From Thermoanaerobaculia bacterium (GTDB lineage Bacteria > Acidobacteriota > Thermoanaerobaculia > Multivoradales > UBA5704), in assembly GCA_044226625.1 (NCBI GenBank), contig JBGAGQ010000100.1:1-15871 (forward strand): DNA of 15,871 nucleotides, written 5' to 3'. Every line of letters starts with the position of its first letter. Position 1 is the stretch's first letter. Below, piece by piece: positions 701 to 15,871 of the stretch. Both the position numbers and the translations under genes were made by a program. Below the pieces are notes generated by a model. It had not been told where the DNA came from. It did not search any database and saw nothing but the letters and a program-made list of their open reading frames with translations.

Positions 701-800
701 TCAGCTGCCCGCGGCGCGCACCTTCTCCCGGGCCTCGGGCGACATCTCCCTCATCCGCAGCAGGACGCGCGCGATCTTCTCGCTCTGCTCCGGACGCCGC
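701..800 (-). other. Short C-terminal amphipathic tail, putative inter-subunit docking domain
   Basis: ERRPEQSEKIARVLLRMREMSPEAREKVRAAGS*. The helix-(M/L)SxE-helix pattern resembles C-terminal docking helices of modular synthases. Function is inferred only. Confidence 0.45.
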
Positions 801-3800: not shown

Positions 3801-6800
3801 GCCATCTCGAACCGGGTGCGAAGCGGCTCATGCCTCTCGGCGAGCGCCGCAAGCGAGCCGGCGAGGGCCGCGGCCGAAACCTCCCCTGCCAACGACAATC
3901 GGAAGCCCACGTTGTACGCCGAGCTCTCCGGCTCCAGCCGATCGAGGAACCAGAGGCGCTCTTGGGCGAAAGAGAGCGGAAGCCGGGCCGACCGCTCCCT
4001 GGCGACGATCGGCCCCAGCGTCGAATGGGAACGCCCCGCCTGCGCATCGATTCGCGCGGCGATCTGGGCGACCGTCGACCCCGAAAACACCTCGGAGAGC
4101 GGCATCTCGACCCCGAACGTCCCACGAATCCTGGAGACCAGCCGCGTGGCGAGGAGCGAATGCCCCCCGAGAGCGAAGAAGTCCGCCTCCGCGCCCACCG
4201 CGACAGCACCCAGCAGCTCCGCGAACAGGCCCGCGACGATCTCCTCGGTAGGCGTCCGAAGGGCGATCCCCTCGGCAACGTTCGACGCCAGATCCGGATC
4301 GGGAAGCGCGCGCCGATCGACTTTCCCCGAGGGCGTAAGGGGCCATTCCTCCATCGCCACGATCGCGGAGGGAACCATGTAGGCGGGCAGGCGACCGGAA
4401 AGATAGGTCCTCAGCTCGGCGAAAGCTTCTCTCTCACCGCCTTCCAAGAGAGTCACCCAGCGCACCCACGCGATCAGCCGCTTGCCCGTCCCGGCCGATT
4501 CGCGGGCAAGCACGATCGCTTCTTTGATTTGAGGATGCGCTTCGAGCGCCGCTTCGATCTCCCCCGGTTCGATCCGGAAGCCGCGGATCTTGATCTGCTG
4601 ATCGAGCCGGCCGAGGTAGTCGAAGCCGCCGTCGCCCCGCTGCCGGACGCGATCGCCGGTTCGATAGAGCCTCTCGCCGTCTCTGTCAGTAAAGGGATTG
4701 GGACGGAATCGCTCGGCCGTAAGGTCCGGTCGATCGAGATACCCTCGCGCGAGCAAACCGCCGAGCACCAGCTCGCCGATGCCGCCCAGGGGCACCAACC
4801 GATCCGCCTCGTCCACCACATATCCCGTTCGCTTCGGCAAGAGGCGTCCGATCGAAACCGACCCCGACTCCGGAAGCCGCCCGACGGAAAGGTCATAACA
4901 GGTGGCCGTGACCACCGTCTCCGTCGGACCGTAGCCGTTGTAGACAACCGGAGGATTGTCCATTCCCTCGAGCCGGCGACGGAAACGCTCGGCCGCCGCG
5001 GGCGCCATCGCTTCGCCCCCGGTGATCAACACTTTCAAGCTCGGAGGCAGAGGTTCCGCGCCCCAGCTCCACTCCGTCCAGACGGCCGTGGGCAAGTTGG
5101 CGATCGTCACTCCCCACCGTTCCAACCAAGCCGAAAGCTCCGAGGGATTCGGCATCTCCGGCCCGCGCACCATCAGCGGCCCGCCGCTCGCCAAGGCGAC
5201 ACCGACCTGCTCCATCGAAACGTCGAAGCTCGCCGAAGCGAACTGCACCACCCGGTCCGAGCCATCCATCCCATAGAACGCCGAGGCTGCCGCGAAGTGT
5301 CCCACCGCATGCCGATGGCTCACGCCCACACCCTTCGGAGTTCCCGTCGAACCCGACGTATAAATGAGATACGCAAGGTTTTCCGCCACCGCCGATCGAG
5401 GGCACTCCTCCGCTCCGAAGTCCTCCCCCTCCGGAAGCCCATCCTCCTTACTGAGAAGAAGCGGAGCCACCCGTCCGTGCCACCCCTCCCAACCGGACGT
5501 CAGGTCCTCCCAGAAGGCACTTCGGCCCACCAATACCACCGCCCCTGAATCCACGACCAACAACCGTCTTCTCCCGACCGGAAGCTCCGGATCGACCGGC
5601 AGGTAGCACCCACCCGCCTTCCATATCGCGATCATCGCCAATACCCGATCGACCGACCTCTCCAACGAAACCCCCACCACCTTCTCCGGGCCCACCCCCA
5701 AGCCCGCCAGCCGGCGCGCCAGGCGATCCGTGTGCCCATCCAGCTCCGCCCACGAAACCCGCCGGCCCGGCTCGTGCTCGGACTCCAACGCCAACGCCTC
5801 CGGCTTTTCCCGCGCCCACCGCCGCACGAAGTCGTGCACGACGCGCGCGGGCAATTCCTCCCCGCCCTCGTTCCATTCGTAGAGCAGTTGATGCCGCTCC
5901 AACCGCCCCAAAAGCTCCGCCTCGGCAAGCGGCCGCTCGGGAACCTCCGCCACGGCCCGCGCCATCCGCTCGAACCCGGCCAGCAACCGCGCCCCGGTCG
6001 CCGGATCGAACAGATCCGTGTTCAGCTCCAGCTCGGCGAGCCACCCATCGCCGGCCGGCGACACTACGAGAGCGAGATCGAGCTTCGCCGCTCCGCCGGA
6101 TAGCCCCCTCACCGTGGTCTCCAGCCCTGGGAGCCTCATCGCCTCCGGCGCCACATCCGGAAGGTTCTGGAAGGCGAACGACACCTGATAGACCGGCGGG
6201 ACGTTTCCTCCCCGCGCGACGCCCAGCTCCGCCACCAGGCGCTCGAACGGGAAGTCCTGATGCGCGAACGCGCCGATCGAAGCTTCGCGCGCATGGGTCA
6301 GCAACGACCGCAGGGGCGCGGAAGGATCGGCAGGTATCCGGAGGGCCAACGAGTTGACGAAGAAGCCGATCAGGCCTTCGGTCTCCGAGCGATTGCGGTT
6401 CGCGATCGGCGAGCCAATCACCAAATCGCGGCCCGAACCCAGGCGGCTCAGGAGGCCTGCCCAGGCTGCGAAAAGCATCATGAAGGGAGTAGAGGCTTCG
6501 GCGTTCGCACGCGTGCGGACCGCTCGTGCCAACTTGGGCGCTAGGGAGCGGTGGACGAGCGCCGCTCGGCGCTTCGGGCCGGAAGGACGCGGCCGGTCCG
6601 CCGGTAGCTCGACGGCCTCCGGCGCCCCAGCCAGGCGCTCTTTCCACCAGGCGAGCTCGCGCTCGTAATACGGACCCGAAAGCTGACGGCGCTGCCAGAT
6701 CGTCCAGTCCGAGTAAGAGATCGGCAGCTCAGGCAGGTGCGCCGCTCTCTCTTCGACGAAAGAGGTGTAGGCCTCGGCGATCTCGCGCGAGAAGACCGAC

Positions 6801-9800
6801 ATCGACCAGCCGTCGATTGCGATGTGATGGAAGCTGAAGATCGCGTCGTGGAGCGTCGGGCCGCGGCGGACCAAAAGTACGCGCACCACCGGACCGCGCG
6901 CGAGGTCGAACGGCCTGCGGCCGAGAAGGCCACCGATTCGGGCGGCTTCGCCCGACGAACCGAGAACCGAGATACCCTGCAGATCGACGCACGGAAAGCG
7001 CGAAAAACTGATCGGAGGAGGATCGACGATCTGCCGCGCCAGGTCTCCGACCTGCACGTAGCGCGTCCGCAACGGCTCGTGCCGGGCGACGACAGCCGAG
7101 AGCGCGGCATCCAGGGCCGGCACTGAAAGTGCCCCTTCGAGCGCCAATCCAAAACCGATGTTGTAAGCCGCCGAGCCCGGCTCCAATCGATCGAGGAACC
7201 ACAACCGCTCCTGCGCGAAGGACAACGGCACCTCGTCCGACTCGCTCGCCCCGCGCGCAATCGGTTCGGCTCTCTTCCCCTCGGTGAGCTTTTCTTCCAC
7301 CGCCGCCGCCACCGCCCCGACCGTCGAGCGCGCGAAAACCTCGGTCAGCGGCAGCTCGATTCCGAAGACCTCACGCACCCGCGACACCAATCGCGTCGCG
7401 AGCAACGAATGCCCGCCGAGCGCGAAGAAATCGCCCTCCACCCCGACCCCACCGCCCCCATCGATCCCGAGCAACTCCCCAAACACACCCGCCACGATCT
7501 CCTCGATCGGCGTCCGCGGCGCCGTGCGCTCGCCTACTTCGCCGTCGAAGACCGGATCGGGCAGCGCCCGCCGGTCGATCTTCCCCGACGGAGTCAGCGG
7601 CCAAACCTCGACCTCGACGAACGCCGACGGCACCATGTACTCCGGTAGGCTCTTCGCCAGGTGCGACCGCAAATCCGGCCAACGGACCTCCGCCCGAAGG
7701 CGAACCCAGCCGACCAGTCGCTTGCCGATCGCCGGCGTCTCGCGCACCGCGACGATCGAGTCGATCACCTGAGGGTGCGCCGCGAGCGCCGCTTCGATCT
7801 CGCCCAGCTCGATTCGGAAGCCGCGGATCTTGATCTGTTGATCGAGCCGTCCGAGGTGATCGAACGTGCCGTCGCCCCGCTGCCTCACGCGGTCGCCGGT
7901 TCGATAGAGCCGCGCTCCGAAAAAAGCGTCAGTAAAGGGGTTGGGACGGAATCGCTCGGCCGTAAGGTCCGGCCGATCGAGATACCCTCGCGCGAGCAGC
8001 CCGCCGAGAGCCAGCTCGCCAATTCCGCCGAGCGGCACCGGGTTCCCAACTTCGTCGACGACGAAGCCCGCGCGCCCAGGCAGCAAGCGGCCGATCGAGA
8101 CGGAGCCCACTTCCGGAAGCGCACCCCGCAAGACGTCATGGCAGGTCGCCGCAACTACCGCCTCGGTCGGTCCATAGGCGTTGAGCGCCAAGAGAGAAGA
8201 ACCCCGCTCGACCCGTTCCCTCAGCCGACTCGCCGCCTCGGCCGGCATCGCCTCGCCTCCGGCGTAGAACATCCGCAAAGCTTCCGGCAGCGGCCGATCG
8301 CTTCGCGTCCATTCGGCAAACAGCGGCGTGGGCATCGTCACGCACGAAATCTGCAGCCGCTCCAACCAAGCCGAGAACTCGGACGGCGCCGGCATCTCCG
8401 GCCCGCGAACGACGAGCGTCGCCCCCGCGGCCAACGCGCATCCCACCTGATCGACCGAAAGATCGAAGCTCATCGCTCCCAACAAGGCCACTCGATCGCG
8501 CTCGCTCCATCCATACCGCTCGACCGACGAAGCGAAATGCCTCACCGCCTCGCCGTGCGCGACCCCGACCCCTTTCGGCTTCCCCGTCGATCCCGACGTG
8601 TAGATCAGATACGCAAGGTTTTCCGCCTCCACCCTCCGAGGAGCCACCTCCGCTCCGAAGTCCTCCCCTTCCGGAAGCCCACCCTCCTTACTGAGAAGAA
8701 GCGGAACCACCCTCCCGATCCACCCCTCCCACTCCGACGTTAGGCCCTCCCAGAAGGCACCGCGGCTGACCACGACCACCGTCCCGGAATCCACCACCAA
8801 CAATCGTTGCCGCTCCATCGGCAGGACCGGATCGACCGGCAGATAACACCCGCCCGCCTTCCAGACGGCGACCATCGCCAAAACCCGATCGACCGACCAG
8901 TCCAACGACACCGCGACCACCGTCTCGGGTCCAACGCCCAATCCAACCAGCCGCCGAGCCAACACCTCCGTATGAGCGTCCAGCTCCGCCCAAGAAACCC
9001 TTCTTTCGGGCTCGTGCTCCGACTCCAACGCGATCGCCTCCGGCTGCTCGCGAGCCCACCGCGCCACGAAGTCGTGCACGCAAGCCTCTACGTCCGCAGC
9101 CCTCTCCCCGCCCCTCTCCCACCCGCTCGCGTTCCATTCGCAGAGCATCTGGTGCCGCTCCGCCGGCCCGAAAACCTCCACCTCGCTCAGCGCCCGCTCG
9201 GGATGTCCGGCCACCGCCTCCGCCATCCGCTCGAACGCCGCGAGCAAGCGAGCCCCGGTCGCCGGATCGAATCGATCGAGATTCAGTTCCAGAAAAGCCC
9301 GAAGATCCCCTTCACCCCCACCGCCCACCGCCGCGATCTCCACTTCGCGTTTCGGCAAGACCACGAGCGAGAGGTCGAGCTTCGCCGTATCTCCCCCCAG
9401 CTCCTCGACGCGGCACTCGACGCCGGGGAGCGTCACCGGCTCCGGGAGGTTCTGGAGACTCGCGAGCGTCTGGTAGATCGGCGGTCCGGCGGTGCCCCGC
9501 GCCGGTGCGATCTCAGCGACCAGCCGATCGAACGGAAAATCCTGATGGGCGTACGCCGCGAGCGCCGCGCGCCGCACCCGCGCCAGAAGCTCGCCGAGCG
9601 AGGCGCCATCCGTCGCAATGCGCAGCGCAAGCGAGTTGACGAACAGGCCGATCAGGCCCTCCATCTCCGCTCGGTTTCGGTTCGCGACCGGCACGCCGAT
9701 CACCAGATCTCTCCCCGCACCAAAGCGCGACAGGAGCCCCGCCCAGGACGCGAGGAGGGTCATGAAGAGGGTCGCCCCCTGGGCACGCGCGCGCCGTTCG

Positions 9801-12800
9801 AGGGCATCCCGCAGATCTCCGTCGAGATCGCGTCCGACCCAAGCCGCTCGTCGTCTCGCCGCGCCTTCCAGCAATCCCGCCGGCCGGTCGAACGGCAGCT
9901 CGAGCCGCTCCGGCGCGCCGCGCAGAGTCTCGCGCCACCAAGAAAGCTCGGCCTCGTAACGCGCGCCGGAGAGAACTTCCCGCTGCCAGGCCGCCCAATC
10001 CGAATAGGCCATCGGCAGCACGGCGAACCGCGCCGGCCGGCGCTCGATCGCCGCGGCGTAGGCCTCCGCAAACTCGCGCGAGAAGATCGCCGTCGACCAG
10101 CCGTCGGTCGCGACATGGTGGAAAGAGAACAGCGCATCGAAAGCGCCCCGTCCGCGCACGACGAGCGCCGGGCGGAAGAGCGGCCTGCGCGCGAGGTCGA
10201 AAGGCCGACGGCCGAAAGAGCGGGCGATGCGCGTGGCCTCCCGCTCCTCGATCCCGTCGGCAGCGAGCCGTCCGAGGTCGACCGTCGACAGGCGGCGGGC
10301 CTCGCGCTCCGGCGGCGCGATCTCGGCAACCGGAGCCGGATCGGCGGCGACGATTCGCGACCGCAGCGGCTCGTGGCGCGCGACGACCGTCGCCACCGCC
10401 GCACCGAGCGCCGAGAGGTCCAAGGAGCCCGAGAGCGTCAACCGGAAGCCGACGTTGTACGTCGCCCGCCCGGGCTCCAGGCGATCCAGAAACCAGAGAC
10501 GCTCCTGTGCGAAAGAGAGCGGCGCGCGGTTGCCCCGGCGCTCCGCGCGCTCGAGCGGACGTTGCGCCGTCACAGGATCCCGAAGGGCGTCCGATCGACC
10601 GTCAATCCGGGCGGCGATCTCGGCCACCGTTCCGGCGACGAACAGCTCCGAGAGCGGCAGCTCGACCTCGAACGCGCGGCGAAGGCGTGAGGCGAGCTGG
10701 GTCGCGAGCAGCGAATGGCCGCCGAGCGCGAAGAAGTCGGACTCCGCACCGATCGGCCCGACGTCTCTCGTTCCGTCGCGCGAAAGCAGCTCGGCAAACG
10801 CACCCGCGACGATCTCCTCGGTCGGCGTCCGCGGCGGCACGTGGCGCGTCGCGCTCTCGACCGCCGCCGGTTCGGGAAGCATCTTTCGATCGACTTTTCC
10901 CGTGGCGGTCTTCGGCCACTCCGGAATCTCGACGAACGCCGCGGGGATCATGAAATCGGGCAGGCGGCCGGCGAGGAAGCGGCGCAACTCGTCGCTCGAT
11001 GGCAGCGGACCGCTCACACCCTCCGCCCTCGGGCGCCACCACGCGATCAGCCGGAGGTCACTGGACGCACCACGGGCAAGGACGATCGCCTCCATGATCC
11101 GCGGATGCGCCGAAAGCGCCGCCTCGATCTCCCCCGGCTCGATTCGGATGCCGCGGATCTTGATCTGATGGTCCAGCCGGCCGAGGAACTCGAACGCCTC
11201 GCCGTCGACCCGCCGCGCGCGGTCGCCGGTCCAGTAGACGCGCGCTCCCGGCTCGCTGGAAGTGCCGTCGGGACGGAAGCGCTCCGCGGTGAGATCGGGA
11301 CGGCCGAGATAGCCGCGCGCGAGCAGACCGCCCAGCAGCAGCTCTCCGCGTCCGTCGCGCGGCAGCGGCGCGCCCGACGAATCGGCGACGTAGCCCGATC
11401 GATGCGGCAGCAGCCGTCCCACCGGAACCGTCGCTCGGCCGCCCAGCTCCTCGATTCGGACCTCTTGGAGCGTGGCGTCGATCACCGTCTCCGTCGGCCC
11501 GTAACCGTTCCAAAGGACGGGCGGCTCGGCGCTCGCGCGTAGGAGCCGCGCAAACCGTCCCGCCGCAGCGGCCCCCATCGCCTCGCCGCCGACGATCACG
11601 GAACGAAGTGTCGACGGGAGCGCCGCGCTCTCCGGATCGGACCATCCCCATTCGTTCCAGATCGCCGTCGAGATGTGCGCCTGGGTGATGCGCAGGCGCC
11701 CCAACCAATCGGAGAGCTCGGCGGGTGCCGGCAGCACGGGGCCGCGGACGACGAGCGTCCCGCCCGAGGTGAGCGCGATGCCGATCTGCTCCATCGAGAC
11801 GTCGAAGCTCGCGGCGGCGAATTGCAGGATGCGCTCGCTCCGCCCCATCCGGTACGCCCCCACCATGGCGGCGAGGTGCACGGCCGCCTCGGCATGGGCG
11901 ACACCGACCCCTTTCGGCGTTCCCGTAGAGCCGGAGGTGTAGAGGATGTAGGCGAGGTTCTCGGGAAGCGCGGGCGTCGGCGCGGCCTCAGGCCCCGGCT
12001 CGAGCGGCGTGCCCTCGTGAGAGAGCAAAAGTGGCCTGACGCGTTGTGTTTCGATGAGGTCAGGCGCCGCCGCGCTCAGCTCGTGCCACAGCTCGTCGCG
12101 CGTGATCAGCGCCACGACCCCCGCGTCCCGCAACAGCAGCGCGCGACGCTCGACCGGCAGCTCCGGATCGACCGGCAGGTAACAGGCACCGGCCTTCCAG
12201 ATCGCCCACACCGCGAGCGGCCGGTCGACCGACCATTCGAGCGACACGCCGACCACCCGCTCCGGCCCGGCACCGAGCGCCGCCAACCGGTGCGCGATGC
12301 CCTCGGCGAGCGCGTCGACCTCGCGCCAGGTAGCGCGCCGCGCGGGCTCGTGCTCCGATTCGAGGGCCCAATCGTCGGGACGCTCGCGCGCGTTGCGAGC
12401 GAGGAAGTCCGGTAAGAGGAGGGTCGAGCGGCGCGACGCCTCCGGAACGCCCTCGATGAGTAGCTGATGCCGCTCCTCCCGCGAAATCAGCTGGGCATCC
12501 AGCAGGGGAATCTCGGGCCGCTCGGCCATCTCCCGTAACATCGCCTCGAAGCCCGAGAGCAGACGCGCACCGGTCGCCGGATCGTAGAGGTCGAGATCGA
12601 TCTCGAGGCGGATCGAATAGCGCTCCCCACCGGGCTCCGGAATCGGTGAAACCCCGACGCCCAGGTCGACTTTCGGCCCGCCGCCGTGAAGTGGCACGAT
12701 CCGCGTCTTGACCCCCGGCAGCTTTGCCGTCTCCGGTACGTTTTGGACCACGAGCGAAGTCGAGAAGATCGGCGGCGCGCCGCTTCCTCGAGCGCCGGGA

Positions 12801-15800
12801 AGCTCGGCAACCAGCCGTTCGAACGGAAAGTCCTGATGCGCATACGCGGCCAAAGCGATGGTGCGCGCTGACGCAACGAGCTGGTCGAGTGAGTCCTCTA
12901 GGCGCGCCTGAATCCGCAACGGCAGCGAGTTGACGAAGAAGCCGATCAGGCCCTCGGTTTCGGCCCGATTGCGGTTCGCAACCGGGGTGCCGATCACCAG
13001 GTCGGCGCCCGCGCCGAGGCGCGAGAGTAGCCCCGCCCAACCGGCGAGCAGGACCATGAATGGAGTGGCACCCGCCGCGCGCGCTCGCGCTTCGAGAGCG
13101 GCCGTCCGCTCGACCGACAGCTCGCGAAAGACGAGATGCGACGTCGGGTGAATCCGTCGCGCCGGCCGCGGACGGTCGGCGGGAAGCTCCGGAACCTCGG
13201 GGGCGCCCTCTAGGTGCTCGCGCCACCACGAAAGCTCGCGCTCGTAGACCTCGCCCGCGAGCCAACGGCGCTGCCAGATCGCGAAATCCGCGTACGCGAT
13301 GGGGAGCGGAGGAAGGATCGGACGCGTCGTCGGGAAGGCCCCGCGCCGATCGACCGCGGCCGTATAGAGCGCCACCAACTCCTTCGAGAAGAGCGCCATC
13401 GACCAACCGTCAGTAGCGATGTGGTGGAACGAAAACACCAGCTCACACGAGCCAGCGCCGAGCGAGACGTGCGCTCCCGCGACCACGGGACCTCGTGCCA
13501 GATCGAACGGTCGTTTTCCAAACGACCCCGCTGCGCGGGCGGCTTCTTCCCGGACGGTCGACTCGGGAAGGGCGCCGAGATCGATCCGCGAGAGCGGGAA
13601 CGGCACTCCGTACGCTGGGGCGATCTCTTGTCGCGGAGTGCCGTCGAGCGTTGGAAACGACGTCCGAAGCGGCTCATGCCGAGCAACGATCTCGCCGAGC
13701 GCCACCGTGAGAGCCGAAACGTCGAGATCGCCCTCCACCTGGAGCCGAAAGCCGATCTGATACGTCGAGCTTCCCGGATCCAGACGGTCGAGGAACCAAA
13801 GCCGTTCCTGCGCGAACGAAAGAGGAATCAACGCGGGGCGTTCGACACGGACCAGGGGAGGCGCCTGCGCGACGCCAGAAGCCGCCTCGATCCTCTCGGC
13901 GATCTGAACGACTGTCGAGCCCGAAAAAAGCTCAGCGAGGGGAAGCTCGATTCCGAACGTCTTCCGAATCCGGGACGCGAGCTGCGTCGCGAGCAGCGAA
14001 TGACCGCCCAGCGCGAAGAAGTCGGCCTCGGCACCCACATCGGAAGCTCCGAGAAGCTCCCCGAACATCCCCGCGACGATCTCCTCTGTCGGCGTGCGCG
14101 GTGCGATTCTCTCGACCGTCTCTTGAATCGCAGGATCCGGCAGAGCGCGCCGGTCGATCTTGCCCGAAGGAGAAAGCGGCCACTCGTCGACCTCGACGAT
14201 CGCCGCCGGCACCATGTATTCGGGCAACCGGCCCTTGAGGAACGAACGCAGCTCGGCGGAGTCTCGAAGCCCGACACCGTCGAGGCTTCGCACCCAGGCG
14301 ATCAGGCGCTTGCCGGTCCCCGGCGATTCGCGCGCCAGCACGATCGCTTCTTTGATCTCCGGATGCGCTTCGAGCGCCGCCTCGATCTCGCCCGGCTCGA
14401 TGCGGAAGCCTCGGATCTTGATCTGCTGATCGAGCCGGCCCAGATAGTCGAAGCTGCCGTCGCCCCGCTGCCGGACGCGGTCGCCGGTTCGATACAGCCT
14501 CTCGCCGTCTTTGTCGGTAAGGGGGTTGGGGCGGAATCGCTCGGCGGTCAGGTCCGGCCGATCGAAATACCCTCGCGCGAGCAAACCTCCCAGCACCAGC
14601 TCGCCGATCCCCCCCGTTGGCGCCAGGCGATCCTCCCCGTCAACCACATAGCCGGTTCTATTGGGCAGCAATCGACCGATCGAAACCGAGCCCGATTCCG
14701 AAAGGCGCCCAAAACCGAGGTCGTAACAGGATGCGGTGACCACCGTCTCCGTCGGCCCATAGCCGTTGAGAACGACGGGCGGGCCTTCCATCTCCTCCAG
14801 GCGCCGCCGAAACCGTTCGGCCGCTGCGGGCGCCATCGCCTCGCCCCCGACGATCACGAGGCGCAACGCGCGGGGCAGCGGCTCTTGCGACCAGGTCCAC
14901 TCGCTCCAAACCGCCGTCGGCAGATTCGCCACCGTGAGGCCGAGCCGTCCGATCCAAGCCGAAATCTCCAACGGGTTCGGCATCTCCGGCCCGCGCACCA
15001 CCAACGTCCCACCACTCGCCAACGCCACGCCCACCTGTTCCATCGAAACGTCGAAGCTCGCCGAGGCAAACTGCACCAACCGGTCGCCCTCATCCATCCG
15101 ATAGAAATCCGACGCCGCAGCAAAGTGTCCCACCGCATGCCGGTGGCTGACTCCCACACCTTTTGGAATCCCCGTCGACCCCGACGTATAGATCAGATAC
15201 GCAAGGTTTTCCGCCACCACCGATCGAGGCCGCTCTTCCGGTCCGAAATCCCCAACCTCCGGAAGCCCATCCTCCTTACTGAGAAGAAGCGGCGCCACCC
15301 GTCCGTGCCACCCCTCCCACTCCGACGTCAGGTCCTCCCAGTAGGCACTCCTCCCCACTACGGCAACAGCTCTGGAATCCACCACCAACAATCTTCGTCT
15401 CTCGACGGGAAGCTCCGGGTCGATCGGCAGATAACAACCGCCCGCCTTCCAGATCGCGATCATCGCGAGCACTCGATCGACCGACCGCTCGATCGAAACC
15501 CCCACGACCTTTTCCGGGCCTACACCCAACCCGGCAAGTCTGCGCGCCACACTCTCGGTGTGCGCATCCAACTCCGCCCACGAATACCGCCGCCCCGGCT
15601 CGTGCTCCGACTCCAAAGCCAGCGCATCCGGCCGCTCGCGAGCCCACCGCCGCACGAAGTCGTGAATGACCCGCCCGGGCAACTCCTCCCCGCCCTCATT
15701 CCATTCATAGAGCAGTTGATGCCGCTCCGCCCGCCCCAGAAGCTCGGCTTCAGCGAGCAGCCGCTCCGGGGCCTCCGTCAACTCCCAGGCCATTCGCTCG

Positions 15801-15871
15801 AACCCGGCCAGCAGCCGCGCCCCGGTCGCCGGATCGAACAGATCGAGGTTCACTTCCAGTTGCGCTTCCAG
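701..15871 (-). CDS. Giant multimodular non-ribosomal peptide synthetase, 5'-truncated by the window edge: (C)-A-T-C-A-T-C-A-T-C-A-T-C-A-T-tail
   Basis: The frame is open from the window edge: 15871 reads LEAQLEVNLDLFDPATG, so the GTG at 15853 is an internal Val, not a start. It runs to TGA at 701-703 (>5050 aa). It contains five YTSGSTGxPKGV (A3 core), five NxYGPTE (A5), five TGD (A7), five GRxDxQIKIRG (A8), five GGHSL carrier motifs and four HHxxxDG motifs. Confidence 0.98.
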   Translation of the reverse strand: MEAQLEVNLDLFDPATGARLLAGFERMAWELTEAPERLLAEAELLGRAERHQLLYEWNEGGEELPGRVIHDFVRRWARERPDALALESEHEPGRRYSWAELDAHTESVARRLAGLGVGPEKVVGVSIERSVDRVLAMIAIWKAGGCYLPIDPELPVERRRLLVVDSRAVAVVGRSAYWEDLTSEWEGWHGRVAPLLLSKEDGLPEVGDFGPEERPRSVVAENLAYLIYTSGSTGIPKGVGVSHRHAVGHFAAASDFYRMDEGDRLVQFASASFDVSMEQVGVALASGGTLVVRGPEMPNPLEISAWIGRLGLTVANLPTAVWSEWTWSQEPLPRALRLVIVGGEAMAPAAAERFRRRLEEMEGPPVVLNGYGPTETVVTASCYDLGFGRLSESGSVSIGRLLPNRTGYVVDGEDRLAPTGGIGELVLGGLLARGYFDRPDLTAERFRPNPLTDKDGERLYRTGDRVRQRGDGSFDYLGRLDQQIKIRGFRIEPGEIEAALEAHPEIKEAIVLARESPGTGKRLIAWVRSLDGVGLRDSAELRSFLKGRLPEYMVPAAIVEVDEWPLSPSGKIDRRALPDPAIQETVERIAPRTPTEEIVAGMFGELLGASDVGAEADFFALGGHSLLATQLASRIRKTFGIELPLAELFSGSTVVQIAERIEAASGVAQAPPLVRVERPALIPLSFAQERLWFLDRLDPGSSTYQIGFRLQVEGDLDVSALTVALGEIVARHEPLRTSFPTLDGTPRQEIAPAYGVPFPLSRIDLGALPESTVREEAARAAGSFGKRPFDLARGPVVAGAHVSLGAGSCELVFSFHHIATDGWSMALFSKELVALYTAAVDRRGAFPTTRPILPPLPIAYADFAIWQRRWLAGEVYERELSWWREHLEGAPEVPELPADRPRPARRIHPTSHLVFRELSVERTAALEARARAAGATPFMVLLAGWAGLLSRLGAGADLVIGTPVANRNRAETEGLIGFFVNSLPLRIQARLEDSLDQLVASARTIALAAYAHQDFPFERLVAELPGARGSGAPPIFSTSLVVQNVPETAKLPGVKTRIVPLHGGGPKVDLGVGVSPIPEPGGERYSIRLEIDLDLYDPATGARLLSGFEAMLREMAERPEIPLLDAQLISREERHQLLIEGVPEASRRSTLLLPDFLARNARERPDDWALESEHEPARRATWREVDALAEGIAHRLAALGAGPERVVGVSLEWSVDRPLAVWAIWKAGACYLPVDPELPVERRALLLRDAGVVALITRDELWHELSAAAPDLIETQRVRPLLLSHEGTPLEPGPEAAPTPALPENLAYILYTSGSTGTPKGVGVAHAEAAVHLAAMVGAYRMGRSERILQFAAASFDVSMEQIGIALTSGGTLVVRGPVLPAPAELSDWLGRLRITQAHISTAIWNEWGWSDPESAALPSTLRSVIVGGEAMGAAAAGRFARLLRASAEPPVLWNGYGPTETVIDATLQEVRIEELGGRATVPVGRLLPHRSGYVADSSGAPLPRDGRGELLLGGLLARGYLGRPDLTAERFRPDGTSSEPGARVYWTGDRARRVDGEAFEFLGRLDHQIKIRGIRIEPGEIEAALSAHPRIMEAIVLARGASSDLRLIAWWRPRAEGVSGPLPSSDELRRFLAGRLPDFMIPAAFVEIPEWPKTATGKVDRKMLPEPAAVESATRHVPPRTPTEEIVAGAFAELLSRDGTRDVGPIGAESDFFALGGHSLLATQLASRLRRAFEVELPLSELFVAGTVAEIAARIDGRSDALRDPVTAQRPLERAERRGNRAPLSFAQERLWFLDRLEPGRATYNVGFRLTLSGSLDLSALGAAVATVVARHEPLRSRIVAADPAPVAEIAPPEREARRLSTVDLGRLAADGIEEREATRIARSFGRRPFDLARRPLFRPALVVRGRGAFDALFSFHHVATDGWSTAIFSREFAEAYAAAIERRPARFAVLPMAYSDWAAWQREVLSGARYEAELSWWRETLRGAPERLELPFDRPAGLLEGAARRRAAWVGRDLDGDLRDALERRARAQGATLFMTLLASWAGLLSRFGAGRDLVIGVPVANRNRAEMEGLIGLFVNSLALRIATDGASLGELLARVRRAALAAYAHQDFPFDRLVAEIAPARGTAGPPIYQTLASLQNLPEPVTLPGVECRVEELGGDTAKLDLSLVVLPKREVEIAAVGGGGEGDLRAFLELNLDRFDPATGARLLAAFERMAEAVAGHPERALSEVEVFGPAERHQMLCEWNASGWERGGERAADVEACVHDFVARWAREQPEAIALESEHEPERRVSWAELDAHTEVLARRLVGLGVGPETVVAVSLDWSVDRVLAMVAVWKAGGCYLPVDPVLPMERQRLLVVDSGTVVVVSRGAFWEGLTSEWEGWIGRVVPLLLSKEGGLPEGEDFGAEVAPRRVEAENLAYLIYTSGSTGKPKGVGVAHGEAVRHFASSVERYGWSERDRVALLGAMSFDLSVDQVGCALAAGATLVVRGPEMPAPSEFSAWLERLQISCVTMPTPLFAEWTRSDRPLPEALRMFYAGGEAMPAEAASRLRERVERGSSLLALNAYGPTEAVVAATCHDVLRGALPEVGSVSIGRLLPGRAGFVVDEVGNPVPLGGIGELALGGLLARGYLDRPDLTAERFRPNPFTDAFFGARLYRTGDRVRQRGDGTFDHLGRLDQQIKIRGFRIELGEIEAALAAHPQVIDSIVAVRETPAIGKRLVGWVRLRAEVRWPDLRSHLAKSLPEYMVPSAFVEVEVWPLTPSGKIDRRALPDPVFDGEVGERTAPRTPIEEIVAGVFGELLGIDGGGGVGVEGDFFALGGHSLLATRLVSRVREVFGIELPLTEVFARSTVGAVAAAVEEKLTEGKRAEPIARGASESDEVPLSFAQERLWFLDRLEPGSAAYNIGFGLALEGALSVPALDAALSAVVARHEPLRTRYVQVGDLARQIVDPPPISFSRFPCVDLQGISVLGSSGEAARIGGLLGRRPFDLARGPVVRVLLVRRGPTLHDAIFSFHHIAIDGWSMSVFSREIAEAYTSFVEERAAHLPELPISYSDWTIWQRRQLSGPYYERELAWWKERLAGAPEAVELPADRPRPSGPKRRAALVHRSLAPKLARAVRTRANAEASTPFMMLFAAWAGLLSRLGSGRDLVIGSPIANRNRSETEGLIGFFVNSLALRIPADPSAPLRSLLTHAREASIGAFAHQDFPFERLVAELGVARGGNVPPVYQVSFAFQNLPDVAPEAMRLPGLETTVRGLSGGAAKLDLALVVSPAGDGWLAELELNTDLFDPATGARLLAGFERMARAVAEVPERPLAEAELLGRLERHQLLYEWNEGGEELPARVVHDFVRRWAREKPEALALESEHEPGRRVSWAELDGHTDRLARRLAGLGVGPEKVVGVSLERSVDRVLAMIAIWKAGGCYLPVDPELPVGRRRLLVVDSGAVVLVGRSAFWEDLTSGWEGWHGRVAPLLLSKEDGLPEGEDFGAEECPRSAVAENLAYLIYTSGSTGTPKGVGVSHRHAVGHFAAASAFYGMDGSDRVVQFASASFDVSMEQVGVALASGGPLMVRGPEMPNPSELSAWLERWGVTIANLPTAVWTEWSWGAEPLPPSLKVLITGGEAMAPAAAERFRRRLEGMDNPPVVYNGYGPTETVVTATCYDLSVGRLPESGSVSIGRLLPKRTGYVVDEADRLVPLGGIGELVLGGLLARGYLDRPDLTAERFRPNPFTDRDGERLYRTGDRVRQRGDGGFDYLGRLDQQIKIRGFRIEPGEIEAALEAHPQIKEAIVLARESAGTGKRLIAWVRWVTLLEGGEREAFAELRTYLSGRLPAYMVPSAIVAMEEWPLTPSGKVDRRALPDPDLASNVAEGIALRTPTEEIVAGLFAELLGAVAVGAEADFFALGGHSLLATRLVSRIRGTFGVEMPLSEVFSGSTVAQIAARIDAQAGRSHSTLGPIVARERSARLPLSFAQERLWFLDRLEPESSAYNVGFRLSLAGEVSAAALAGSLAALAERHEPLRTRFEMADGRPVQRIDSSVAISLPRIDLSGLGRRSGPHAEGLAARWGRQPFDLARGPVFRAVVVHREARRDEAWFLFHHIATDGWSTGVFSHELVETYSAALERRPARLAPLAIGYADWAIWQREVFAGEVYARELAWWRERLAGAPQATELPVDRPRPARPSKLAQTVRLDLPANLSASLAASARSFGATPYMVLLAGWTGLLSRLGAGRDLIVGLPIANRNRIETEGLVGFFVNTLAIRLAVEAERPLDDLLRAARSAALDAYAHQDFPFDRLVAELGGARGGAPPLFSVSLMLQNLPEPVLLSGVPAEIAELGGGRAKLDLSLALVAGPDAGLRALLELDLDLFDPATGARMLSGFVAMLGEIVGNPGRRLAEVELLGPSERHQLLVEWNDLGRELPPTRVHDWIARHAAERPEAIALESEHEPGRRYTWREVAARTDRLARRLASLGAGPERVVGVSLERSVDRVLAIYAIWKAGACYLPVDPELPVERRALLLGDARAMALIAREAFFVDLPLGLSGPGGAVAPLLLGGDGMPLAPGPEETPRAALAENLAYLLYTSGSTGTPKGVAISHRHAAGHFAAAASFYRMDPTDRVVQFAAASFDVSMEQIGVALASGGALFVRGPELPNPLELSAWMDRHRITNANLPTAVWTEWSRAEDPLPEGLRVLVTGGEAMTPAAAERFRKRMAMRPTSPVVYNGYGPTETVVTATCQDLSVGRLADSGSVSIGRLLPDRTGYVVDEGDRLAPLGGTGELVLGGLLARGYLDRPDLTAERFRPNPFADKDGERLYRTGDRVRQRGDGSFDYLGRIDQQIKIRGFRIEPGEIEAALEAHPTVVDAIVLAREMPGAGKRLIAWYRPPEISREALSETAATRAAEIRRFLSARLPEYMVPAAFVEILGDWPVSATGKIDRRALPEPTRTETPERTAPRTAVQRMIASFWRDALPELGDDLAIEDSFFEIGGHSLLAVQVASKVSATFQVDLPLKRLFEAPTIEGLEAAVLAVERRPEQSEKIARVLLRMREMSPEAREKVRAAGS
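800..1030 (-). other. Terminal peptidyl carrier (T) domain T5
   Basis: SFFEIGGHSLLAVQV; Ser codon at 920-922; followed by only ~33 residues and the stop codon. Confidence 0.93.
1062..2612 (-). other. Adenylation domain A5; manual specificity code DVENVGGVTK (one conservative change from A1/A4)
   Basis: YLLYTSGSTGTPKGV (~2108-2152), SFDVSMEQ, TNANLPT, LVTGGE, NGYGPTETVVT, PVSATGKIDRRALP. Confidence 0.92.
2690..3982 (-). other. Condensation domain C5 (LCL-type)
   Basis: PLSFAQERLWFL; HHIATDG at 3569-3589; VGLPIANRNRIETEGLVGFFVNTL; AYAHQDFPFDRLV. Confidence 0.92.
4045..4260 (-). other. Peptidyl carrier (T) domain T4
   Basis: DFFALGGHSLLA; Ser codon at 4157-4159. Confidence 0.95.
4295..5840 (-). 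other. Adenylation domain A4; manual specificity code DVENIGGVTK (same as A1)
   Basis: YLIYTSGSTGTPKGV (~5327-5371), SFDVSMEQ, TIANLPT, LITGGE, NGYGPTETVVT, PLTPSGKVDRRALP. Confidence 0.92.
5130..6020. repeat. GRINS-like skewed intragenic repeat, copy 3 (end of C4 and N-terminal half of A4)
   Basis: Near-identical to copy 1. Hand counts: 5521-5580 C29/G8/A14/T9; 5641-5700 C32/G7/A14/T7. Boundaries approximate. Confidence 0.8.
5920..7230 (-). other. Condensation domain C4 (LCL-type)
   Basis: PLSFAQERLWFL; HHIAIDG at 6809-6829; IGSPIANRNRSETEGLIGFFVNSL; AFAHQDFPFERLV. Confidence 0.92.
7290..7520 (-). other. Peptidyl carrier (T) domain T3
   Basis: DFFALGGHSLLA; Ser codon at 7406-7408; Gly/Val-rich segment LGIDGGGGVGVEG before the motif. 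Confidence 0.95.
7555..9080 (-). other. Adenylation domain A3; manual specificity code DLDTYGAVAK (substrate not recognised)
   Basis: YLIYTSGSTGKPKGV (~8567-8611), SFDLSVDQ, SCVTMPT, FYAGGE, NAYGPTEAVVA, PLTPSGKIDRRALP. Confidence 0.92.
8570..9270. repeat. GRINS-like skewed intragenic repeat, copy 2 (end of C3 and N-terminal part of A3)
   Basis: Shares exact AGATACGCAAGGTTTTCCGCC (8607-8627, 5367-5387, 15195-15215) and CCTCCTTACTGAGAAGAAGCGG (8683-8704, 5443-5464, 15271-15292) with the other copies. Hand count 8881-8940: C27/G12/A16/T5. Boundaries approximate. Confidence 0.75.
9180..10522 (-). other. Condensation domain C3 (LCL-type)
   Basis: PLSFAQERLWFL; HHVATDG at 10100-10120; IGVPVANRNRAEMEGLIGLFVNSL; AYAHQDFPFDRLV. 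Confidence 0.92.
10595..10835 (-). other. Peptidyl carrier (T) domain T2
   Basis: DFFALGGHSLLA; Ser codon at 10712-10714; short insertion (RDGTRDVG) before the motif. Confidence 0.95.
10870..12420 (-). other. Adenylation domain A2; manual specificity code DVEHIGGIDK (basic amino acid, Orn/Lys/Arg-like, inferred)
   Basis: YILYTSGSTGTPKGV (~11905-11950), SFDVSMEQ, TQAHIST, VIVGGE, NGYGPTETVID, YWTGD, PKTATGKVDRKMLP. Confidence 0.92.
12500..13825 (-). other. Condensation domain C2 (LCL-type)
   Basis: Starts with PLSFAQERLWFL. HHIATDG at 13406-13426. Also has IGTPVANRNRAETEGLIGFFVNSL and AYAHQDFPFERLV, which are LCL-type motifs. Confidence 0.92.
13880..14105 (-). other. Peptidyl carrier (T) domain T1
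   Basis: DFFALGGHSLLA; phosphopantetheine Ser codon at 13997-13999. Confidence 0.95.
14135..15670 (-). other. Adenylation domain A1; manual specificity code DVENIGGVTK (basic amino acid, Arg-like, inferred)
   Basis: YLIYTSGSTGIPKGV (~15155-15199), SFDVSMEQ, TVANLPT, VIVGGE, NGYGPTETVVT, PLSPSGKIDRRALP. It is preceded by the tail of a C domain (15871-~15730). Confidence 0.92.
14960..15850. repeat. GRINS-like skewed intragenic repeat, copy 1 (end of C1 and N-terminal half of A1)
   Basis: Near-identical to ~5130-6020 (offset 9828 nt). Example: the exact 37-mer CCTCCGGAAGCCCATCCTCCTTACTGAGAAGAAGCGG occurs at 15256-15292 and 5428-5464. Hand counts on the + strand: 15301-15360 C30/G10/A9/T11; 15481-15540 C28/G11/A13/T8. 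Boundaries approximate. Confidence 0.8.

Follow-up and report, generated by a model that had tools for sequence, protein, structure and literature searches.

Candidate GRINS-type repeats with GC skew alone at condensation-adenylation junctions of a nonribosomal peptide synthetase from an uncultured member of the Acidobacteriota

Work on the skewed repeats known as GRINS has dealt almost exclusively with polyketide synthases of actinobacteria. In the founding report, GRINS are repeats of about 1 kb in assembly-line synthetase genes, in which GC and TA skew are correlated (r = 0.70) and the sign of the skew often flips abruptly; hybrid clusters are noted to hold some in their nonribosomal peptide synthetase (NRPS) modules, and more than one phylum is represented, several in all (Nivina et al., 2021; PMC8256042). 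A later description gives GC and TA skews above 25% and identities that are often above 90% (PMC10394414). A separate line of work, to which PMC9205934 also belongs, concerns recombination and gene conversion within NRPS adenylation (A) domains. It describes mosaic A domains with breaks near the linker between condensation (C) and A domains and in the A core (PMC13500794; bioRxiv 10.1101/2022.12.02.518901). A literature search found no paper whose listed title or abstract deals with such repeats in A domains of NRPSs, although the supplementary lists of PMC8256042, arranged by cluster and gene family, could include some.

The DNA analyzed here (the window; 15,871 nucleotides) is one entire 15.9-kb contig of a metagenome-assembled genome (MAG) from an uncultured, soil-type member of the Thermoanaerobaculia (Acidobacteriota). 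It carries an NRPS gene on the minus strand (701..15871) as a single open reading frame (ORF) whose 5′ end is cut by the contig end, whose stop codon lies at 701-703, and whose translation is unbroken across 5056 codons. Five A-T(-C) modules are arranged in the order (C)-A-T-C-A-T-C-A-T-C-A-T-C-A-T, as judged from matches to the Pfam families AMP-binding, AMP-binding_C, PP-binding and Condensation (E-values 1e-9 to 1e-152), and it is this repeating C-A-T order that marks the gene as an NRPS. The modules, all on the minus strand, occupy positions 12608-15859 (W1), 9293-12607 (W2), 6032-9292 (W3), 2804-6031 (W4) and 704-2803 (W5). Core motifs A1-A10, together with GGHS of the T domain and HHxxxDG of the C domain, were located within them by their standard patterns. 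The closest solved structure is linear gramicidin synthase A (E = 1e-156). Two further NRPS genes of the same genome, X and Y (contigs C3 and C133), are paralogous to the window gene, W, and the three together comprise 15 modules.

Three stretches of gene W are strongly depleted of C on the coding strand, silent codon positions included. As maximal-scoring segments on the minus strand, they span positions 14897-15823 in W1 (927 nt; coding-strand GC skew +0.31, TA skew +0.14), 8202-9346 in W3 (1145 nt; +0.32 and +0.16) and 5108-6158 in W4 (1051 nt; +0.30 and +0.17). The W1 tract begins just before the coding sequence of the preceding C domain ends, passes through the C-A linker and motifs A1-A4, and ends between A4 and A5, and the other two have the same layout. 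The paralogous stretches of W2 (11552..12607) and W5 (1763..2803), likewise on the minus strand, serve as internal controls and are unskewed, with G96:C90 and G89:C107, respectively, at four-fold degenerate sites. Thus, skewed and unskewed paralogous tracts lie within one reading frame and constitute a natural experiment. Antisense ORFs on the plus strand have borders that differ from those of the tracts, and such open frames are usual at this G+C content.

An initial annotation, made from the letters alone, had proposed three skewed segments in the A domains of modules 1, 3 and 4 and a contrast with modules 2 and 5, and both the segments and the contrast are real. Its plus-strand hand counts proved exact for the skewed segments (5521-5580, C29/G8; 5641-5700, C32/G7/A14/T7; 8881-8940, C27/G12/A16/T5; 15301-15360, C30/G10 with A9/T11) and for the stretch in module 5 (2221-2280, C23/G24; 2281-2340, C24/G20; 2401-2460, C25/G16). 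The segments share the 15-mer CTTCTTCTCAGTAAG, which occurs exactly three times, always on the minus strand (5447, 8687 and 15275), where 0.01 occurrences are expected. The description of all three as close copies holds for W1 and W4, whose tracts are 84% identical over about 900 nt, but not for W3, a divergent copy that is 73-75% identical to the others. Similarly, the plus strand of the tracts is A-rich as described, but no more so than the remaining gene: mean absolute TA skew is 0.177 in the tracts and 0.182 elsewhere (Mann-Whitney p = 0.60), whereas mean absolute GC skew is 0.31-0.40 versus 0.089 (p = 1e-44).

On the scale of the genome, these tracts are extreme. GC skew in 900-nt windows has a standard deviation of 0.056 genome-wide, and of the 18 regions that exceed |0.22|, 12 belong to the window gene and its two paralogues. 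When four-fold sites of coding windows are considered (genome mean -0.06, SD 0.11), the top 10 of 5220 windows all fall in the three NRPS genes. The skew is restricted to one A-domain N-terminal family in 11 of the 15 modules, in which four-fold GC skew reaches +0.47 to +0.55; the remaining four modules have values of -0.23 to +0.18, and sequence outside the tract within the same modules has +0.02 to +0.23. Across the 43 further A domains that were found in the genome, no value is above +0.28. The six strongly skewed regions that lie elsewhere in the genome were inspected as ORFs only.

Depletion of C affects all three codon positions, four-fold sites too, and is accompanied by a shift of amino-acid use toward G-rich codons. 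At four-fold sites the ratio of G to C is near 3:1 (W1, G118:C34; W3, G111:C40; W4, G122:C38). GC skew at codon positions 1, 2 and 3 is +0.31 to +0.42, +0.02 to +0.04 and +0.42 to +0.47 in the skewed tracts, versus +0.14, -0.2 and about 0 in W2 and W5. C-ending codons are avoided in all codon families (GGC,.22 in tracts versus.55 in the genome; CTC,.15 versus.52), whereas TTG (.34 versus.07) and GAT (.59 versus.27) are raised. Val, Gly, Glu and Trp are used more often, and Ala, Leu, Pro and Thr less often. The skew peaks at four-fold sites, and amino-acid composition is therefore rejected as its only cause.

Could selection on the message account for this pattern? A block of rare G- and T-ending codons after each C domain might slow translation for folding or, in a variant, C-poor RNA might be favored as less structured or as poor at Rho loading. 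The tracts start at a domain boundary, codons that the genome seldom uses (TTG, GAT, TAT, AGT, CTT and GGG) are over-represented in them, and their predicted RNA structure is slightly weaker (-61.5 versus -67.0 kcal per 150 nt). However, shuffled sequences fully reproduce this energy difference, and RNA structure was rejected as a cause. Moreover, the same shift from C to G extends to the first two codon positions and to the amino acids, where selection for codon speed predicts none; the block is about 300 codons long; and it is missing from four of the 15 modules in the same genes and from 43 other A domains. Taken jointly, these two forms of message selection seem unlikely.

The resemblance to GRINS can be put in quantitative terms. 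We re-implemented the thresholds from the Methods of PMC8256042 in our own code, with ungapped identity: a length of >500 bp, >80% DNA identity to another part of the synthetase (150-nt windows at steps of 30, averaged over 5), and absolute GC and TA skew each >0.15. The tracts (927, 1145 and 1051 nt) and the detector regions (870 nt) exceed the length threshold, and GC skew is at least twice its limit (0.31-0.40). Within the window, the duplication threshold is exceeded at 5131-6000 and 14941-15810 (mean identity 0.84), and the first of these regions is called by the detector (84% identity, absolute GC skew 0.32, absolute TA skew 0.18). The W3 copy is duplicated at this level over only 270 bp (8581-8850). 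With the paralogues on C3 and C133 as targets, all three copies qualify as duplicated (14912-15811 at 0.88, 7892-9271 at 0.92 and 5042-6991 at 0.89). The four-fold skew of +0.47 to +0.55, the codon tables and the amino-acid shift agree with the silent-position skew and protein recoding of GRINS.

TA skew in these tracts is borderline, with values of 0.18, 0.14 and 0.20-0.26, compared with 0.18 in the gene remainder, and in DNA of 67% G+C the TA threshold is reached by background and noise. Two descriptive hallmarks of GRINS fail: the correlation between GC and TA skew is r = 0.06 in the window tracts and 0.35 over the skewed duplicated windows of the three genes (0.04 elsewhere), rather than 0.70, and all 16 tracts of the three genes are positive on the coding strand, with no sign change. 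The TA part of the later description is likewise absent, and identities here are mostly 73-88%, not above 90% (PMC10394414). Further differences from the GRINS of PMC8256042 are that the host is a pure NRPS in the Acidobacteriota and that the skew is common to other species rather than private to one cluster. The likenesses are repeats of about 1 kb in an assembly-line synthetase gene, identity above 80% for two copies, intense GC skew that is kept at third codon positions while the protein is recoded, and, for W1 and W4, copies that are closer within the genome than between homologous synthetases (PMC8256042).

Thus, the match to the GRINS of polyketide synthase genes is incomplete. Of the initial reading of the segments as GRINS, length, duplication, GC skew, recoding and, for W1 and W4, within-genome homogenization stand, whereas TA skew above background, a tight GC/TA correlation and both signs of skew do not. 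Our preferred interpretation, to which we give a probability of roughly 0.6, is that these C-to-A junction repeats of about 1 kb, whose coding strand is persistently poor in C, represent a form of GRINS-type element with GC skew only. If so, the locus extends the GRINS-like phenomenon to a pure NRPS in the Acidobacteriota.

Evidence for exchange between modules comes from conflicting trees. The tracts form a clade restricted to this genome (SH-aLRT 99), whereas the upstream C domains reject such monophyly (AU p = 7.8e-5); the N-terminal A-domain data (A_N) in turn reject a grouping of terminal modules that the C-terminal data (A_C) support (AU p = 1.4e-47), the groups in the AU tests having been chosen after the trees were seen. 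An excess of within-genome identity (+0.04 to +0.20) is limited to the region from the linker to A3. The most skewed part of the tract is the part that is homogenized in the genome, and the adjoining C domains keep their between-species relationships. The W1 tract is 87-88% identical to the X2 and Y2 tracts on other contigs. Homogenization holds for W1 and W4. For W3, orthology with a skewed copy of another species survives the AU test (p = 0.52), and this tract may be a simple orthologue of a skewed copy elsewhere. Such intragenomic exchange between modules and between genes is reminiscent of NRPS A-domain recombination, but the accounts of the latter that were consulted do without nucleotide skew (PMC13500794; bioRxiv 10.1101/2022.12.02.518901), whereas the tract here is marked by a 3:1 ratio of G to C at silent sites.

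Recent conversion among the three copies of the window is a different matter. They share exact runs of 20-37 nt, as 84% identity predicts, and the longest runs (37, 27 and 23 nt) do not stand out from permutations (P = 0.17, 0.054 and 0.26). Identity at four-fold sites among these copies is 0.58-0.68. Four-fold sites have therefore largely diverged between copies, which are not recent conversion products. The gene conversion proposed at the outset is thus backed by the tree conflict and by the excess from linker to A3, and weakened by the W3 test and by silent-site divergence.

One pair of modules departs from this pattern. The W3 tract is 91% identical to module X5 on contig C3, and a patch from A3 to A5 (8120..8600, minus strand; about 470 nt by sliding identity) is 96-100% identical, with exact runs of 75-83 nt; the rest of the module ranges from 74 to 98%. 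The patch could be either a recent conversion or a short-read assembly cross-over. Most of it falls at the end of the tract where skew is weak, and recent exchange is therefore not limited to intense skew. Genes W and X are collinear over a 9.2-kb high-scoring pair (76.9%), in which identity is high only from W3 to the W4 tract. W2 and X4, considered as a clean pair of replaced and retained copies, are about 60% identical throughout and were unusable.

The X5 patch also bears on whether short-read assembly of the MAG, through collapse of repeats or chimeras among them, generates the pattern as a whole, as do a contig end inside a stretch that is 92-97% identical to paralogues and a bin contamination estimate of 5.5%. 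However, the sequences of the tracts are 16-27% apart, too far for collapse, the reading frame is intact, base-composition skew cannot arise from mis-joining, and skewed homologues of the tracts are present in congeners and metagenome contigs that were assembled independently. An assembly or binning artefact is therefore extremely improbable.

The tract is present in related organisms. Among four congeners, 19 of 30 modules are skewed, as are all six metagenome loci at 71-74% amino-acid identity, whereas none of five loci from other genera of the same family is. At four-fold sites, copies from this genome have an identity of 0.62 and copies from different species one of 0.56, where chance predicts 0.45. 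Despite such nearly saturated silent sites, the skew is +0.4 to +0.6 in every lineage that bears the tract, and therefore something still maintains it. The same tract in several species across this divergence argues for active maintenance over mere copying. Regardless, substitutions alone cannot tell silent-site selection from mutation bias, and maintenance fits both equally.

These comparisons weigh on ordinary paralogy, in which a duplicated A-domain N-terminal family would have inherited its composition from a single ancestor, with no ongoing process and with likeness owed to protein constraint. Several observations agree with such an origin: nucleotide identity follows amino-acid identity (84% and 86% for W1 and W4), divergence at silent sites is substantial, exact runs have the lengths that chance allows, copies resemble one another as closely in the unskewed A_C part as in the skewed part (83% versus 84%), and skewed members from all species fall into a single large clade. 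Yet, with four-fold identity only 0.11-0.17 over chance, an unmaintained skew should have decayed toward -0.06. The conflict between tract and flanking-domain trees also speaks against simple inheritance, as does a second, lineage-specific tract of the same sign in the T domain. We consider paralogy alone an improbable account.

The lower G+C of the skewed tracts (0.65-0.67 versus 0.71-0.72 in the unskewed paralogues) and their atypical codons could instead suggest a donor with other codon usage, from which the tract then spread by recombination. A homologue search across the order found close homologues in the same genus only, and matches at 68-74% identity in genome and metagenome collections are all MAGs of Thermoanaerobaculia or Acidobacteriota or unnamed contigs. 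We know of no genome-wide codon usage with a 3:1 ratio of G to C at silent sites, which counts against a foreign origin, and the skew persists without amelioration across saturating silent divergence. A foreign source is thus very improbable.

With regard to mechanism, we infer that the NRPS tracts may keep losing C through a process that is asymmetric between the strands and linked to the coding (non-template) one. The tracts would also provide the homology by which modules and genes recombine or undergo gene conversion. Replication- and transcription-associated strand asymmetry and R-loop-prone GC-skewed DNA produce an excess of G over C on one strand that is most marked at silent sites and, where G+C is high, is accompanied by little TA skew. 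All tracts here are similarly G-rich on the non-template strand, but their skew is 10-20 times the contig background (+0.30 versus +0.015 and +0.030 for the strand of X and Y) and is confined to 0.3-1.1 kb within the gene. Of the possible processes we favor, with low confidence, transcription-linked exposure of the displaced G-rich non-template strand in an R-loop-like state that would be both self-reinforcing and recombinogenic. Specifically, G-rich junction transcripts would form R-loop-like structures, C would be lost at all codon positions, the sequence would become more G-rich still, and the junction would be a preferred site of recombination. This cycle is speculative and we regard it as rather doubtful. 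If true, it would be the missing mechanism behind GRINS generally, and the NRPS case would represent its simplest form, with one sign, GC skew only, unskewed controls in the same gene, and a new T-domain tract in one lineage. A replication-linked component is also possible, as genes X and Y are both on the weakly G-rich strand; W is without flanking sequence, and replication and transcription are therefore inseparable here.

Several candidate sequence features were examined in this connection. A scan with a simplified model of R-loop-forming sequences matched every tract on the sense strand and matched antisense once (gene X, coding nt 4-342), and was discarded as evidence because it merely restates a G content of at least 40%. 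Over-represented 6-8-mers correspond to conserved homologous positions rather than to a motif that would cause the skew. Each tract has 0-1 copies of the E. coli-type Chi octamer, which is also present in an unskewed tract. G-quadruplex motifs are present in W3 and some X tracts, and W1, W4 and all Y tracts have none.

A second, shorter tract is found in the T domain of W3 (7199..7504, minus strand; GC skew +0.36, four-fold GC skew +0.48) and recurs in XT1, XT3, XT5 and YT1 of this genome (four-fold skew +0.43 to +0.50). None of the 30 T domains of the congeners carries it (range -0.29 to +0.33), a distribution suggesting that this tract, of the same sign as those in the A domains, arose newly in this one lineage. 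Homogenized, skewed DNA is thus placed at C-A and T-C junctions. These are fusion points used by engineers, and natural exchange units may therefore be readable from base composition alone. The homogenized core ends before the specificity pocket, whereas GRINS in AT domains swap specificity.

Coding-strand GC skew in the NRPS gene of the window, here called gene W, rises to +0.3 to +0.47 at three places when followed in sliding windows of 150 nt, whereas it stays close to zero over the homologous stretches of modules W2 and W5. As maximal-scoring segments, these skewed tracts lie on the minus strand at 14897-15823 in module W1, 8202-9346 in W3 and 5108-6158 in W4, with GC skews of +0.30 to +0.32. 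Each tract starts 10-50 codons ahead of the C-domain end, spans the C-A linker and adenylation core motifs A1-A4, and stops between A4 and A5, as placed by a scan with core-motif patterns. A fourth segment of the same type, 306 nt long, lies over the W3 T domain (7199-7504, minus strand). The hand base counts of the initial annotation all proved exact on recount, and the 15-mer that it described as shared occurs exactly three times, once per tract. Its description of the tracts as three close nucleotide copies holds for W1 and W4 (84% nucleotide identity) but not for W3, which is 73-75% identical to either. Likewise, the exact shared words are present as 20-37-mers, but words of this length are expected at these identities.

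Gene W is a minus-strand ORF (701-15871) along which the Pfam domains AMP-binding, AMP-binding_C, PP-binding and Condensation recur in order, and which we divided into modules W1 (12608-15859), W2 (9293-12607), W3 (6032-9292), W4 (2804-6031) and W5 (704-2803), all on the minus strand. Facing the 3′ end of gene W on the plus strand is a convergent MobA-like nucleotidyltransferase (NTP transferase) gene (31-678; PF12804, E = 3e-26). The window is a complete contig (C108) of a 6.6-Mb assembly (133 contigs, 67.7% G+C), and the 5′ end of the gene is lost off the contig edge. Because the contig end (15722-15871) falls where paralogous modules match the sequence at 92-97% identity, the missing part probably reflects a repeat-induced assembly break. 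Two paralogous NRPS genes in the same genome are complete, namely gene X with six modules (C3:70076-89911) and gene Y with four (C133:86012-99115).

The tract skew is real, far beyond chance and a striking, statistically extreme feature of gene W. In 900-nt windows the genome-wide SD of GC skew is 0.056, and 12 of the 18 regions with |GC skew| >0.22 lie within W, X and Y. At 4-fold sites, the genome averages -0.06 (SD 0.11; 325-codon windows, n=5220), and the ten windows with the highest values are all in these three genes. Moreover, of 43 further A domains located by motif in this genome, none has a 4-fold GC skew above +0.28.

The skew is seen at codon positions 1, 2 and 3. Specifically, 4-fold sites have G:C counts of 118:34 (W1), 111:40 (W3) and 122:38 (W4), against 96:90 (W2) and 89:107 (W5), which bears out the contrast that had been drawn between the A domains of these modules. 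Third positions overall are.57 G and.22 C in the tracts, versus.41 and.42 in the unskewed paralogues. Every codon family in the tracts shuns C-ending codons, with G-ending codons rising and T-ending codons rising less, and amino-acid use shifts in parallel, such that Val, Gly, Glu and Trp are higher and Ala, Leu, Pro and Thr lower. Thus, the tracts are recoded at the DNA level, and their skew is not a consequence of protein composition. TA skew does not rise with GC skew (0.177 in the tracts, 0.182 in the rest of the gene, p = 0.60; r = 0.06 between the two skews in the window). As a separate observation, TCGATC, a palindromic hexamer, is found 50 times across the 11 skewed C-A junction tracts of W, X and Y, about five per tract, where their dinucleotide content alone predicts 5.4.

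A skewed tract is present in 11 of the 15 modules of the three genes (W1, W3, W4, X1, X2, X4, X5, X6, Y2, Y3 and Y4) and absent from W2, W5, X3 and Y1. Altogether, 16 maximal-scoring segments were found, 11 at C-A junctions and five around T domains, and every one has positive coding-strand skew. Four congeners carry the tract in 19 of 30 modules of homologous NRPS genes, with flanks near zero, and the skew recurs in all six metagenome loci that share 71-74% amino-acid identity. In other genera of the same family, five loci with 42-47% identity do not carry the skewed tract. An assembly artefact as the source of the pattern is very unlikely, since the same tract recurs in independent assemblies and the copies in the window have diverged by 16-27%. 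In the starter module Y1, the homologous tract has a 4-fold GC skew of -0.23 (G73:C116) and falls into a distinct, deeply divergent A-domain clade together with the first modules of congeners. An unrelated A domain, encoded on a metagenome contig and 30% identical to the query, has values of -0.50 over the tract and -0.56 downstream of it, a gene-wide C3 preference rather than a local tract; background thus varies between organisms.

The T-domain tracts (window 7199-7504; C3:73085-73628, 79628-80008 and 86330-86626; C133:88585-89459) represent five modules and have 4-fold GC skews of +0.43 to +0.50. No comparable skew is seen among the 30 T domains of the four congeners (range -0.29 to +0.33, positional counterparts of Y1 included), so this skew appears to have arisen in the lineage of the present genome.

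Gene conversion between modules, as had been proposed, would show as concerted evolution of the tracts. The tract was compared as protein across 45 modules; in the resulting tree, 12 modules from the present genome group together as a genome-only clade (SH-aLRT 99), and the copies of two other species are intermixed. The C domains directly upstream of the same modules form no such clade, and forcing it on the tree costs 375 log-likelihood units (AU p = 7.8e-5). In the A domain's distal half, X6, Y4 and W5 group with terminal modules of other species, a grouping that the tract data reject (AU p = 1.4e-47), and W3/X5 group with a module of another species. The groups for these AU tests were picked after the trees had been seen. 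A sliding comparison confines the surplus of identity within the genome over that between species (+0.04 to +0.20) to a region that begins at the C-A linker and ends shortly before A3, which is the most skewed part of the tract; elsewhere the surplus is at most +0.03. Homogenisation does not extend securely to W3, which need not belong to the homogenised set because a sister relationship of W3/X5 to their other-species counterpart is not rejected (AU p = 0.52). W1 and W4 are equally alike in the tract (84%) and in the unskewed distal A region (83% nucleotide identity). W3 and X5 form an identity mosaic of 74-100%, in which about 470 nt (about 8120-8600) are 96-100% identical with exact runs of 75-83 nt, and the rest of the module is 74-98% identical. 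This patch reflects either recent conversion or exchange between genes, or an assembly cross-over.

At 4-fold sites, skewed copies share 0.62 identity within the genome and 0.56 with other species, where composition alone predicts 0.45. Positional counterparts show the same saturation in their flanking C domains (0.42-0.53 versus 0.37 expected by chance). We argue from simple decay that a merely inherited skew should by now have relaxed largely to the genome value of -0.06, yet the tracts stand at +0.4 to +0.6 in every lineage. This persistence, together with the lineage-specific T-domain tract, argues that some force still produces and maintains coding-strand C depletion.

Any mechanism must accommodate a coding-strand-specific depletion that affects all codon positions, is restricted to the junction tracts of one family, persists across species and coincides with the homogenised segment. 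The sequence fits mutation bias and selection at silent sites alike, although the parallel shift at codon positions 1 and 2 favours mutation bias. A translational explanation is kept alive by the rare codons in the tract and its location at a domain boundary. Replication may also contribute, as both X and Y are encoded on the strand of their contig that is weakly G-rich. We prefer an account in which transcription would expose the G-rich non-template strand at the tracts, and this exposed strand could both deepen the skew and promote recombination. A simplified R-loop model flags every tract, but these flags reflect only composition, given a G content of 40% or more in the tracts. Sequence motifs, Chi-like words, G-quadruplex patterns and RNA-structure effects were considered, and none explains the skew.

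[quoted passage not shown] Our own re-implementation of the detector from the published Methods (150-nt windows, step 30; five-window mean identity >80% over >500 bp; mean |GC| and |TA| skew >0.15), passes 5131-6000 within the window (identity 0.84, |GC| 0.32, |TA| 0.18). The other two copies fall short: 14941-15810 clears the identity and GC-skew thresholds (|GC| 0.31) with |TA| only 0.14, and the W3 copy passes the identity rule over only 270 bp. When X and Y are added as targets, all three tracts pass the identity rule, W3 and a W3-to-W4 block pass both skews, and W1 passes as GC only. The TA threshold is uninformative here, as the entire gene is at about 0.18. Correlated GC and TA skews, a reported GRINS hallmark (r = 0.70; PMC8256042), are absent from the NRPS tracts (r = 0.06 in the window, 0.35 over the three genes). 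A later description gives skews >25% and identity often >90% (PMC10394414); the GC skew of the tracts reaches >25% whereas their TA skew does not, and among the pairs compared only W3-X5 attains 91% identity. The tracts are best filed as a GC-only GRINS variant in an acidobacterial NRPS. They are not a new kind of element, since GRINS have been reported in some NRPS modules and many phyla (PMC8256042), and the supplements of that study may include comparable cases. The value of this locus lies in its built-in unskewed controls, the evidence that the skew is actively maintained, and a T-domain tract specific to one lineage.

Motif searching located at least 57 adenylation domains across 15 contigs, which makes this Thermoanaerobaculia MAG unusually NRPS-rich. 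Outside W, X and Y, six regions also exceed |GC skew| 0.22 in 900-nt windows (C42:30151-31350, C83:301-1200, C86:114001-114900, C86:117751-119250, C109:47701-49200 and C133:77851-78750), two of which have low GC3 and may represent non-coding RNA.
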